A DNA stretch of 20,530 nucleotides from Octopus sinensis (taxonomy: Eukaryota). Positions 9,377 to 13,973 of this stretch are shown one piece after another. The notes beneath the pieces were generated by a model. It was given only the letters and a program-made list of their open reading frames with translations, was not told the DNA's origin and ran no database searches. The first letter of the stretch is position 1, and the number at the start of each line of letters is the position of its first letter. Location of the stretch: the NCBI RefSeq assembly GCF_006345805.1, contig NW_021823974.1, positions 1-20,530 on the forward strand. The letters are read 5' to 3'. Made by a program: the position numbers and the translations under genes.

Positions 9377-9379
<3 letters not shown>

Positions 9380-9702
9380 TACTTCTACATTGGTGCATCC
9401 TCTTCCCAGTCATCTAAGAGAATTTCCAGTTATTATTCTTCACTTAGGATAGCAGTAAACGTTATAGCACAGGACTAAGTAAATTGGTTTGGTATCTTAA
9501 AAACAACAATAAGGATTTTAAGTTAGATTGGTTCATCCTGTCCATATCTTTCCCTTATGATAAGGGCAAAGAATTTTCTAACATTTGCAACTCTGAACTC
9601 TTCCATATTCTCTTCACTAAGAATCACCTTGTTAACACACTTATAGAGCGCTCTTACAAATGTAAGCACTGGCAGAAGCATATCTTTAGCTCATATAAGT
9701 GA
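9377..9702 (+). pseudogene. Penelope-like GIY-YIG endonuclease C-terminal half, one frameshift near 9448
   Basis: Joining ORFs 9155..9478 and 9484..9702 gives VYFYIGASSSQSSKRISSYYSSLRDSSKRYSTGLSKLVWYLKNNNKDFKLDWFIL...YDKGKEFSNICNSELFHIL...LVN...KCKHWQK, matching the invertebrate PLE pattern YIG...KR...SF...ST.LSK.IW.LK...W.I...CNLC..E...LN...CRH. Confidence 0.85.
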
Positions 9703-9949
9703 TTTTTACCAGTCTTTATAGTTTGAACATTTAGTTCAACTTTACTTCAATAGAGAAATCTACTTCCAAGCCTTTAAACATTTTTTCAACAAATATATCC
9801 CCCTTTATTTGTTCACTACTTATTATTTCTTTATCCCTTGTCTTCCTAGAGTCTGCCTTTGACGTCGGATCTACTAATGGTTTTTATTAATTACTTAATA
9901 GCGTTCTGTTTGTCATTTATGCAGTCATCAAAATTGTTAGAATGTCTTT

Positions 9950-10035
9950 CTTTCCTGATGAGAAGATTACATTATTTTACACCGTTTATTTCTTTGGAAT
10001 AAAACGAATATTGTCTTCGAAACATATGTCGAAAG
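9950..10035 (+). ncRNA. Type I minimal hammerhead ribozyme with canonical core; predicted cleavage after GUC at 10030
   Basis: Stem I ctttc(9950-54)/gaaag(10031-35); CTGATGA 9955-61; stem II gaagat/gtcttc with an extended inner helix; GAAA 10019-22; palindromic stem III ACATATGT; C17 = 10030. Confidence 0.88.
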
Positions 10036-10233
10036 TAAAAGAATTTGAATAACATCTGCGCTCCACTCTATTTATTTACTTATACTATAAAAATTACTGC
10101 AAATTAACCCGGTGCTTCTACCTTTGAATAGGTCGCTACATCCTTGTTACTTGCGTGAATGTTGCTACTCTGGTAACTGTTTATTGGATTTTCCATGTTA
10201 ACGGTAAACAAAGGATAATTCATTCATCCATTT

Positions 10234-10289
10234 ACACACACACACATATATATATATATGTATTATGTATGTATGTATGTATATATATA

Positions 10290-10367
<78 letters not shown>

Positions 10368-10388
10368 TATATATATACATACATAGAT
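10234..10388. repeat. (CA)/(TA)n tract, right flank of the Penelope-like insertion
   Basis: Direct reading. Confidence 0.95.
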
Positions 10389-10546
10389 ATATGGGCTCCC
10401 ATACGGATTCCGTCAACCAAATTCACTCACAAGGCAATCCGAGACGCAAAGTTACAATTGGAAGTACTTGCCCTAAGCGCTGTACAGCAACGCTGAATGC
10501 GACCGTACGTGGTTGTGAAGGAATCTTCTTAACCACATAGTCATAC
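10389..10546 (-). mobile_element. 5' (tRNA head) half of SINE family B
   Basis: ttccgtcaaccaaattcactcacaaggc...acttgccctaag...gtggttg...tcttcttaaccacatagtcat is colinear with ~7890-8012. Confidence 0.75.
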
Positions 10547-10814
10547 GTATGTCGGTCGATTATCCTTTTGTTATGAAGTATACCGAAACAGATCATATAA
10601 TTAGACTGTGTTTCTGAGTTGAGATGGGCGTAACGCGAAATGCTTTTCTCTATATTAGTTGGTATTTTTTTGCCCTGAATCAATTATAGGTTTTCCTCAT
10701 TTAAATGAGGCAGAATTTCAATCCGTATTCCAAGAAATAATTTCTTGCATTACAGATGATGAGACAAAATTCAGCACAACTTTTCCGTATCCAAACATGA
10801 GTTTCCCAAATTTT

Positions 10815-10853
10815 ATATACTACATATATTTATATACATACATATATTATATA

Positions 10854-10934
<81 letters not shown>

Positions 10935-10961
10935 AATATACATATATATATATATAAATAT

Positions 10962-11003
<42 letters not shown>

Positions 11004-11224
11004 GTATAATATATATATTATATATATTTATATATATATATCATATATATACATTATATACATATATATATAATATTTATATATATATATATTTATATAT
11101 ATATTATATATATATATTTATATATATATTTATATATATATATTATTATATATATATATATTAAATATAATATATATATATATATATATATAATATATAT
11201 ATATATAATATATATATATTATAT

Positions 11225-11260
<36 letters not shown>

Positions 11261-11285
11261 TATTTATTTATATATATGTATATAT
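10815..11285. repeat. ~470-bp imperfect (TA)n array
   Basis: Almost purely A/T. Confidence 0.97.
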
Positions 11286-11506
11286 TACGGAGATATACAT
11301 CCATAGGAAATGACTTGATCGGAGATCGCGTGCTGAAACAAAACCAATTGCAGCAAAGAACGTGCAGCGCGGAATTTTGTCAGTGAACAGGTCGCGGTTT
11401 CAAAGTGACGAAAATATTTTGACAAATTAATCTAAATGTTGAAGAGAATCTAACGGCTTTTGTGTGTTTTAAATGGCTTATAAACACACTTCAACGCTGC
11501 AATTGT
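11286..11506 (+). mobile_element. Short non-coding island in (TA)n; probable non-autonomous PLE pLTR or retrozyme-like element
   Basis: Sharp microsatellite boundaries, an internal HHR-like fold, and inverted copies caattgcagc (11345-54) / gctgcaattg (11496-11505). Confidence 0.55.
11373..11428 (+). ncRNA. Variant type I hammerhead ribozyme (G3:C8 core, UUU triplet)
   Basis: Stem I tttgtca(11376-82)/tgacaaa(11420-26); core GTGAACA 11383-89; extra G 11390; stem II gtcgc/gtgac; GAAA 11410-13; palindrome AAATATTT. Confidence 0.6.
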
Positions 11507-11577
<71 letters not shown>

Positions 11578-11598
11578 GAGAGAGAGAGAGAGAGAGAG
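11507..11598. repeat. (TA)n followed by (GA)n
   Basis: Direct reading. Confidence 0.95.
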
Positions 11599-12489
11599 AA
11601 GAAGAGACTGAAGTGGGTCAACAGATGAGATCTTGAGATGCTTATTACTGTAAACATGAACGTATTTATCGAGGTACTCGGAGTAAAGAGTGGCTATGAG
11701 GGGAAGCCAGGTGAGCCGGGTTTCATATATGAAATATACGTACATACATATACACATGTCAGTATATATAGGGATATATATATATATCGAGAGAGAGAGA
11801 GAGAGAGGAGAAACAAGACTGAAAATGAAGATGAACACGCGTGTATAAGCATTTAGATATTTCTATATTTATGGATCAGTTTTACATGGAACAGAAACAA
11901 TACAGAAAACTAGGGGGAGAGGGCATAGTATCTTAGGTCCGGCAGTTCTTTCTAGGGCTTGGAATTACGTAATATTTGTAACGTTGGGAGATAGAGTTTA
12001 CAAAATGTGAAGAATATGCAAGTGATAATGGACGCATAAAAACATTACCATAAAGCTACTCTCCGTTTTGCGGGTGGAAAGATTGGCAACTAGTGGTTCC
12101 GATCAGGATTCGAGAGAATTTAAGGATAGAATGTGTGTAGTAGGCAAATAGAAGTTGGTGGAAGGTGAATGTAGGTGGGACACTGGGGAGAGGAGAATGT
12201 TGAAGCAGAGGAGGGGTAAGAAGAGATAGGAGAGGCAGTGCAGTGAGAGGGAATGAGTGACCAGGGGATTTGAGAGAAGTAGATGTGGTGAGACGAAAGA
12301 TGACCGAAAAGGGGTAGAGTCGACAATATTGTGAAGAATGGCGTTGTTGCTGGGTGTGTTGACAATAGACGTTATTAATCAGGGATTGTAGAACCGATAG
12401 AAAGAAGTGATTCATCGCTGGTAACACTTTCAGTAGCTGGTATGCAGTACTAGATGCTTAAATCTGCCGAATCACGTATGTCTATTGGG

Positions 12490-13210
12490 CTATACAATAT
12501 TGAACCAGCTTCCAGCCCCCATTAAGTAACTGAGATGTTCCTTCAAAACTAGAAATTGAATACTGTGGACAAAATTGTGTTTTAGGGGTGTGTTGCATCG
12601 TGTTCGATCATTAAATGATGAAATTTTGAACAAAAAGCATCTCACGTTTTCAAGAATCGTAAAGGGTGAATTTGGTCTAACAGAGATACGACTATGGAAA
12701 ATATGAAGGTTGAAGTGTATAGGGCATGTGTGCATTCATCCATTTTCTACTCATTTGAGACATTGAAATATCTAGGAAGCACCTCCAATAGTTAAGCGAA
12801 ATCATAAGCAATGTTTACGCTCTCTTGTAAAAATCAAATGGGTGCACAAGATACCGAATACAAAAGTACTTGTGCGTATTAGTGTGAATGGTATTGAAAC
12901 TAAAATTCATCCACAAAGATTTGGTCAACACATGCCGAATACAACGAAAAACACCTTTCGAAGATTCGATACGTAGCTCACTAAAGAACTTTGTAAACTG
13001 GAAGTGTGATCCAAAGGATCGGATAAACTGGAGGAGTAAAATCCGAGAAGTTGCTGCTTTGTTTCACAATATCAAGCTGGAATATGCATTGACAAATAAA
13101 GAGGCAACAGAAAGGCTTACCTGTGGCCAATGACACCTATTTCGTTCTAATACCTGCAACCATATTTTGTCTTTCTCAAACTGGACTAGTTATTAGGAGC
13201 AGAAGCTCTT
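12490..13210 (+). mobile_element. Decayed 3' part of an RTE-clade LINE (RT C-terminus and terminal zinc-finger remnant)
   Basis: Frame-broken motifs KLNTVDK, SLNDEILN, IWSNRD...KVEVYRACV...YSFET, KQCLRSLVKIKWVHKIPNTKVL, FEDSIRSSLK...KDRINWRSKIRE, TCNH..LSQTGL. Confidence 0.85.
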
Positions 13211-13871
13211 ACTGAGGTGCCCTACTGAATATTCAGAGTTACAATCTCTTGAACTTATCGCTGTGTTTGTAATAAGATATACAGAAGAAAATATGAGTTG
13301 ACAAAGCACATGAAATGTCACAATAATGTCACAGATATAAGCAGTCTTCGTAACTAAATCAAGCATTTTCATGTCCTCTGTCTGGAAAAAACATTCGTAA
13401 CTCTCTTCCTCCTCTAAAGATCTATTTCCGTTCACATAATATATTGAATCTCTCTAACCATATTGTAGTAATTTTCTAAACAGTGAATATTTTACTTTAT
13501 AAAATGTTCTCCCCAATGGTTCAGAATCAAACGTATATACAAACTGTTGCATATTTACTAATTTTTATAGGTAAATAATGTTTGATTTATTTATTTGAAT
13601 TCGTTATCTTTATTTAAATATTTTATTCTATTCGATTTCTATATAACAATAATTAAACTGCAAATATCATTGAAGTCGCTAATTTATACTACATTAGTGA
13701 CTTTTCATGTATTACTCATGCGATTGTGTATTGTTTTAACTAGTTTAGTGCTAATGGAATATGTGCTCTGTCATCACTAGTTTATTATAGTCTTACTCGA
13801 CTAACGAGTCGACAGACATATATCATTAAATGTGAGTGTGTGTCTCCAAATTGTGGGAGTGGAGCAGCTAA

Positions 13872-13973
13872 AATTCAGGCTACATATGTTCCCTAGCTAG
13901 CAAATACTCCGATGTAATAATTATCAAACGAGAAGTATATAGCGAGCTACTCATCAGGAACGATACCTGAATT
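13872..13973 (-). ncRNA. Decayed type I hammerhead-like motif (probably inactive)
   Basis: Minus strand: aattcagg-tatcgttc-CTGATGA-gtagct...agctag-GGAA-CATATG-TA-g-cctgaatt. Confidence 0.45.

Follow-up and report, generated by a model that had tools for sequence, protein, structure and literature searches.

Candidate hammerhead ribozymes with a long helix II and a G3-C8 core pair beside TA microsatellites of Octopus sinensis

Overview of the locus

We analysed a 20,530-nt stretch of the Octopus sinensis genome (contig NW_021823974.1; hereafter the window), in which motifs resembling hammerhead ribozymes (HHRs) lie among microsatellites at 9377-13973. HHR1 (+) stands in an island with the features of a Penelope-like element (PLE) of the Hydra clade, HHR2 (+) in a 221-nt island between TA tracts, and HHR3 (-) is damaged. 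An earlier note on this DNA had described three clustered motifs; three do lie within 4.1 kb (cores at 9955+, 11383+ and 13957-), but their quality is unequal. The note's two islands with (TA)n or (CA)n on both sides are present at 9377-10234 (island 1) and 11286-11506 (island 2).

The window is AT-rich, animal-type DNA for which 40 tandem-repeat rows were listed, and 22 merged simple-repeat arrays make up 18% of its bases. Family-level evidence came from public sequencing runs and from relatives in other organisms, and the controls for chance occurrence of motifs included block shuffles of the window (1500). An Rfam scan of the window placed no hammerhead family among the best 150 of 256 matches, which were microsatellite-driven microRNA and small nucleolar RNA matches, and Pfam searches with 24 stop-free stretches gave no useful match inside 9377-13973.

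Island 1 as the tail of a Hydra-clade element

Island 1 lies between a (TA)n tract at 9238-9376 and a (CA)n then (TA)n tract at 10235-10392, both taken from the tandem-repeat list. It opens with the broken C-terminal end of a GIY-YIG endonuclease gene of the Hydra clade (9377-9702, +), recognized by protein matches and profile score. This relic is 5'-truncated at the YIG motif (9386-9394), with (TA)n in place of the upstream gene; it has a frameshift near 9446 and is stop-free over 9448-9699. A 3' untranslated part follows at 9703-9949 (+), its position inferred from the stop codon and its extent covered continuously by the family; then come HHR1 (9950-10035, +) and a 3' tail at 10036-10234 (+), with family cover to about 10218.

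A protein search with the stop-free stretch 9448-9699 (+) returned 349 proteins at E<=0.001 (best 1.5e-12). In the longer matches the motifs of the Hydra reverse transcriptase (RT; DKT and RWK) and of the CxCX5C linker are present, together with a cysteine/histidine region at the terminus, the clade assignment being a by-eye comparison with Fig. S7 of Craig et al. 2021 (PMC8557442). A profile built from 149 of the 150 listed matches scored 120 bits on island 1, at most 6.2 elsewhere in the window and 5.1 on a reversed control. Other resources recognized the relic poorly: Pfam gave a weak GIY-YIG match on one of 20 homologues (E 0.072), the ESM Atlas returned unnamed clusters alone, and a word-index protein search with the island 1 open reading frame gave no matches.

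The edges of island 1 in this copy lie 1 and 11 nt from TA tracts, a closeness on each side shared by about 1% of non-repeat positions and by none of five copies of a SINE-like (short interspersed element-like) repeat used as a control. One truncated copy is present; no second copy, by which a pseudo-long terminal repeat (pLTR) or partial tandem might be recognized, was seen in the window. Because the gene end is homologous to Hydra-clade endonucleases and the motifs run in the order gene end, untranslated region (UTR), hammerhead, tail and TA, island 1 is best identified from its sequence as the 5'-truncated tail of a Hydra-clade PLE. The first 13 nt of the island (9377-9389) recur at 9307-9319, some 70 nt upstream inside the TA tract, possibly through template jumping at the 5' junction or because the microsatellite underwent unequal exchange.

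HHR1 and its long helix II

HHR1 was called as a type I hammerhead by descriptor scan, shuffles and a peak of family depth. Helix I (9950-9954/10031-10035) has 5 bp, the core occupies 9955-9961 (C3-G8), GAA lies at 10019-10021, and helix III is the palindrome ACATATGT (10022-10029), with C17 and a predicted cut after C 10030. The motif carries CUGANGA, GAAA and UH together with helices I-III and was the sole perfect type I core found in the window by descriptor scan. It stands on the sense strand 256 nt 3' of the gene end, within the range of 76-379 nt in Hydra loci.

The helix II domain extends over 9962-10018, placing 57 nt between the core halves, with 6 bp at its base. Three of the listed majority family differences fall in it. 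At 9991 and 10010 the majority letters give C-G pairs where the window copy has a wobble and a mismatch; the third difference, at 10006, lies in the internal loop region. With these two C-G pairs, the base of helix II would count about 12 bp interrupted by a single mismatch, and its apical hairpin 8 bp. By eye, the consensuses of loose ends retain this hairpin despite altered letters. Because family variants restore its pairs, the long helix II appears to be a trait of the family rather than an insertion private to the window copy. Lying outside the core, it is probably an arm that is tolerated and conserved in structure, and possibly a protein-binding site. Two single contigs of one run (X1) have the arm (window 9964-10021) swapped for 5 and 9 letters, and these are rare short-arm or deleted copies.

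Compared with the 11-27 nt of 50 Hydra relatives, the 57-nt domain appears to be a new trait. Searches of open-licence literature turned up no long helix II in a retroelement; for two PLE-X families of plants, File S2 of PMC8557442 gives loop 2 lengths of 29 and 35 nt.

The island 1 family in sequencing runs

Part of island 1 occurs in 20 of the 24 listed runs, none of which reaches half of its words. Family pieces were placed from four of these runs, for island 1 only, and were cut at repeats near 10218. Three genomic-type runs with three organism labels yielded 1623 (X1), 986 (X2) and 1608 (X3) pieces, mostly 80-95% alike, and a fourth (X12), whose type is guessed as RNA and for which transcription is not claimed, yielded 136. 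These counts characterize the island 1 family, at the level of sequence, as high-copy and interspersed.

Summed contig depth, which is no copy number, ranged in X1 from 3,347 to 32,236 over the gene end, rose to 394,615 at 10022-10051 and stood at 50,307-86,567 over 10112-10201. That depth culminates on the hammerhead and that loose ends occur to either side of it suggest that several subfamilies have the module in common. Of 100 differences that separate the window copy from its family in X1, 3 are C/G exchanges, fewer than in any other class of change.

Island 2 and the G3-C8 pair of HHR2

Island 2 (11286-11506, +), its borders set by TA tracts alone, lies between a listed (TA)n tract at 10814-11285 and a (TA)n then (GA)n tract at 11507-11607 that starts 87 nt behind the predicted HHR2 cut. 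HHR2 (11376-11426, +) is a type I hammerhead with a swapped G3-C8 pair, called by shuffles and by a scan allowing any Watson-Crick pair at 3-8, which found exactly HHR1 and HHR2 in the window. Helix I (11376-11382/11420-11426) has 7 bp; the core at 11383-11389 is followed by an extra G at 11390, and helix II (11391-11395/11405-11409) has 5 bp, including G10.1-C11.1. GAA lies at 11410-11412 and helix III is the palindrome AATATT (11413-11418), with U17 and a predicted cut after U 11419. The motif thus has a Watson-Crick 3-8 pair, U4 G5 A6, A9, GAA, A15.1-U16.1, H17 and three helices, and lacks the literal C3 and G8.

Shuffles gave a comparable motif with at least 5 bp in helices I and II in 16 of 1500 cases, and in none of 1500 when a palindromic helix III was added. 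As a natural control, the HHR2 core pattern had 100 scored matches in viral contigs (106 of 107 listed loci), none with a 5-bp helix I or II. The departures from the consensus are both partners of one tertiary pair, that is, a compensatory swap, and by its sequence HHR2 does not seem decayed. In a PLE hammerhead, C3G/G8C partly rescues cleavage in vitro whereas each single change abolishes it (PMC11167929). HHR2 also carries the three hallmarks of PLE hammerheads given by Cervera and de la Pena 2014 (PMC4209133), namely an extra nucleotide after A9, G10.1-C11.1 and a palindromic helix III. A double C/G swap by drift with all else intact is unlikely, because C/G exchanges are so few in the neighbouring island 1 family.

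Natural covariation at 3-8 is in print as U3-A8 (PMC3088659, PMC4209133), and searches of open-licence literature turned up no natural G3-C8 hammerhead; should HHR2 cut, it would add a natural variant to those known. Around it, a 10-bp stem closes the 3' domain of island 2, whose overall fold is not better than shuffles (z -0.22). The window holds a single monomer, and no coding relic was found in the island. The island probably represents either the short 3' tail of a PLE or a non-autonomous unit.

Hammerheads and TA tracts in Hydra loci

The comparison set comprised 80 Hydra loci from metagenome contigs, some of them near duplicates. A hammerhead lay 76-379 nt 3' of the gene in 50 of them, with core halves 11-27 nt apart and a helix III of 9-10 nt that always starts with AC and ends with GT; the palindrome of HHR1 and HHR3 is not among its 29 distinct sequences. 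The 3-8 pair was C-G in 49 and U-A in one, and no G3-C8 hammerhead was found in 190 kb of Hydra loci. The U3-A8 case (locus L171) lies about 246 nt behind its gene end.

Of the 44 Hydra loci with enough sequence, 18 had a TA tract no more than 130 nt past the cut site, compared with one of 291 more distal bins. The distance of the tract, 32-115 nt, takes in the 87 nt at which (TA)n begins behind the HHR2 cut. Targeting of (TA)n is real for the Hydra clade and already published: section 11 and Files S1 and S2 of Craig et al. 2021 (PMC8557442) describe families with canonical hammerheads that almost all insert into (TA)n, an octopus family included. Of these, Hydra-1_Obim is listed without a pLTR.

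HHR3 and the sequences between the motifs

HHR3 (13872-13973, -) was assessed by scans, shuffles and the gene-relic profile. Its core (13957-13951) is followed by a helix II domain of 58 nt that forms a paired arm (13950-13893), and helix III lies at 13889-13882. It has GGA for GAA (A13 is G), G at 11.1, and a helix I of 1 bp, a 7-nt bulge and 8 bp, so that neither an intact G12 A13 A14 nor a helix I adjoining the core is present. An HHR3-like match arose in 46 of 2000 shuffles, and HHR3 is therefore a weaker call. With the closest (TA)5+ tracts at distances of 692 and 2072 nt, it has no TA flank, and the profile was at background over the window upstream of it, with no Hydra gene relic. A tblastn match at 14157-13975 (-) (E 0.003, 1 of 150 queries) was dropped as a gene relic; it is expected by multiple testing and had no support from the profile.

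As the earlier note had it, two motifs share long stem II arms and a stem III palindrome; these are HHR1 and HHR3, with ACATATGT and helix II domains of 57 and 58 nt, and HHR2 differs. Judged by palindrome and arm length, HHR3 seems to be distantly related to the HHR1 type, and it is likely a decayed copy. The long-helix CATATG pattern had 19 matches in viral contigs, none with the helices. The note's statement that the motifs are unrelated holds at the DNA level, with no significant likeness outside the core: shuffles scored as well in 415 of 2000 cases for helix II of HHR1 against HHR3 and in 118 of 200 for island 1 against island 2.

The two weaker relics that had been placed between the motifs contain no hammerhead. 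At 11599-11724 no GAAA follows any near-core heptamer, and 11880-12480 has one-mismatch heptamers alone and was not called by stem-requiring scans. By eye, and as a lead only, 12400-12490 (-) resembles the decayed C-terminus of a Neptune-type GIY-YIG domain, followed by a pyrimidine-rich 3' UTR over 11880-12400 (-). A homologue search of the overlapping frame 12059-12457 (-) in the protein word index gave no matches.

Discussion

The arrangement is probably explained by independent 3' remnants of different PLE families: island 1 would be the tail of a high-copy Hydra family, island 2 likely a shorter tail of another family, and HHR3 likely an older decayed copy. Element RNA would be bound by its own RT/GIY-YIG protein, which would nick (TA)n DNA and prime reverse transcription near the RNA 3' end. 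Early termination would leave short hammerhead-bearing tails in TA tracts, and TA-rich regions could thus gather several tails. Each hammerhead would cut the precursor RNA of its own family, as a same-family dimer via the palindromic helix III or with help of the element protein. AT-rich nicking, internal initiation and protein-assisted cleavage have been shown for another PLE (PMC11167929), and we infer that they may apply here. If a high-copy family prefers TA sites, 4.6 kb of TA-rich sequence with a few hammerheads might be expected somewhere in the genome, and the cluster itself is likely ordinary. What stands of the proposal of a microsatellite-targeting PLE system is that island 1 appears to be a multi-copy PLE of a TA-targeting clade; the framework is already published.

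Several observations weigh against this explanation. The hammerhead fold of HHR1 (-7.6 kcal/mol) lies 3.4 above the lowest-energy fold (-11.0), and its helix II, taken by itself, does not exceed shuffled sequences in stability (75 of 500), unfavourable energies that are expected for a drifted copy. Conservation of the HHR1 core in the family is judged from 40 of the 113 rows of differences, none of which falls in it. The depth maximum lies on the hammerhead and not at the 3' end, for which 5' truncation alone does not account, and the TA flanks of other island 1 copies fall outside the pieces, since these are cut at repeats. HHR2 is known from one copy, in an island whose borders are defined by the TA tracts themselves; its helix III lacks the AC start and GT end seen in all 50 Hydra examples, and upstream of island 2 the profile was at background in the window, with no Hydra gene relic. 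Metagenome contigs and prokaryote genomes held no relatives of island 2, collections that are not expected to include this host, so this result is uninformative; relatives of HHR3 were likewise not obtained. Finally, 30 of the 80 Hydra loci were without a hammerhead call, many of them short-tailed and several long-tailed.

An unlikely reading, though one worth weighing, is that island 2 and some members of the island 1 family are non-autonomous units that consist of a hammerhead only, resemble retrozymes or SINEs and borrow PLE protein for (TA)n insertion, maybe via small circular RNA. The small size of island 2, its lack of a coding relic and the 10-bp stem around its hammerhead would fit such a unit, as would the hammerhead bin of X1, with about 12-120 times the summed depth of gene-end bins, and the loose ends that join other sequences on both sides of the module; animal non-LTR (long terminal repeat) retrozymes of about 300 nt are known (PMC7229834). 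However, island 2 is a single monomer and not the tandem array typical of retrozymes, and its overall fold does not exceed shuffles. Short tails are also an outcome of 5' truncation, and the depth ratio falls under the caution on summed depth given above. We regard it as quite improbable that G3-C8 in HHR2 is a private accident of one decayed copy or a chance look-alike, with the motif inactive in either case. The single copy seen and the absence of the pair from the 50 Hydra hammerheads and the 190 kb of their loci would agree with this, and in the predicted fold G3 can wobble with U17 and lengthen helix I. Against it, both the shuffles with a palindromic helix III and the scored viral matches failed to reproduce the motif, its other core positions and helices are intact, and the exchange belongs to the rarest class of change.

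A cooperating system, in which families share CATATG for cross-family dimer cleavage and insertions drive the microsatellite load, builds on possibilities raised in the earlier note and is very improbable. HHR1 and HHR3 do have an 8-nt palindrome and a near-equal helix II length in common, and that palindrome is absent from the Hydra loci; yet every one of the 50 Hydra helices III has AC and GT ends, and the likeness therefore reflects kinship. In a type I hammerhead dimer, the 5' helix I arm of one copy pairs with the 3' arm of the other. Cross-family cleavage fails because the helix I arms cross-pair over 0-3 bp, compared with 5 within HHR1 and 7 within HHR2. HHR1 and HHR3 moreover lie on opposite strands, HHR3 is damaged, HHR2 has another palindrome, and most simple-repeat arrays of the window adjoin no hammerhead island. 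The dimer form of type I hammerheads has been described in PMC4209133 and PMC6155905.

Independent remnants of different families can be set beside several known systems. Island 1 shares with Hydra PLEs (Craig et al. 2021, PMC8557442, including Hydra-1_Obim) a C-terminal GIY-YIG domain with a terminal CxxC/CxH-type region, a 3' UTR with a type I hammerhead on the sense strand, (TA)n as the insertion site and a helix III of the form AC...GT. It differs in its 57-nt helix II, where File S2 gives Hydra loops of 3-10 nt and the 50 loci compared here have 11-27 nt from core to GAAA, and in a fully palindromic helix III of 8 rather than 9-10 nt; the window copy is truncated and broken. Naiad cases annotated 'HHR_half_core' (Methods and File S1 of the same paper) resemble island 1 in core halves far apart (35-50 nt) and in being TA-targeting PLEs missed by standard descriptors, whereas island 1 is Hydra-type with all three helices present. 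HHR2 is like the minimal type I hammerheads of metazoan PLEs in its extra nucleotide after A9, G10.1-C11.1 and short palindromic helix III; those described in PMC4209133 have C3-G8 or U3-A8 in place of G3-C8, and no linked gene was found for HHR2. The same swap is partly active in vitro in engineered C3G/G8C hammerheads (Frangieh et al. 2024, PMC11167929; Kalweit and Hammann 2013, PMC3884650), while HHR2 is a predicted ribozyme in genomic DNA. Like the non-LTR retrozymes of animals (Cervera and de la Pena 2020, PMC7229834), island 2 is a small non-coding unit with a type I hammerhead, though it is without tandem copies.

As PLEs with hammerheads that insert into TA repeats are already published, the cluster adds little to that framework. 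Both hammerhead variants, the long helix II of HHR1 and G3-C8 of HHR2, appear new within the open-licence literature searched. In an animal retroelement, a natural G3-C8 core would complete the 3-8 covariation series (C-G, U-A, G-C). If a high-copy family has a long helix II, counts that rely on descriptors and Rfam overlook whole families, and the question of the Naiad 'half-cores' becomes directly testable. Both variants are natural constructs for asking what PLE hammerheads do. We hold it as a tentative idea, somewhat more doubtful than probable, that this animal lineage has large PLE-linked hammerhead families missed by standard descriptors. One would be a Hydra family of high copy number whose 57-nt helix II is conserved in structure, and another, separate from it, a TA-targeting family of 220 nt with a working G3-C8 ribozyme. 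Long helices would then also account for the Naiad half-cores.

Other features of the window

The SINE-like repeat that served as a control has five copies (3127-3202, 3779-3959, 6610-6771, 8750-8957 and 14500-14627), 70-80% alike and none TA-bounded on both sides. Two inverted copies of 106 nt (5799-5904 and 7416-7521), 95% identical and separated by 1.5 kb, may delimit an inverted-repeat element of 1.7 kb; each copy contains a CTGACGA heptamer, with no hammerhead called. At 5027-5749 lies a near-perfect 720-nt palindrome centred on a TA/TACA tract, with 79 nt identical at 5037-5115 and 5661-5739, which may be a fold-back element or an assembly artefact. A direct repeat of 64 nt (94% identical) was seen at 16557-16620 and 17072-17135.

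Decayed pieces of long interspersed elements (LINEs) lie at 12500-13150 (+) and about 17300-19300 (-); Pfam was uninformative on them, and by eye we take them to be RTE-like. Finally, 19754-20530 holds an (ATCT)n tract immediately followed by a LINE fragment, presumably L1/Tx1-like, with the start of an RT domain (RVT_1, E 6e-5), possibly another microsatellite-associated insertion.

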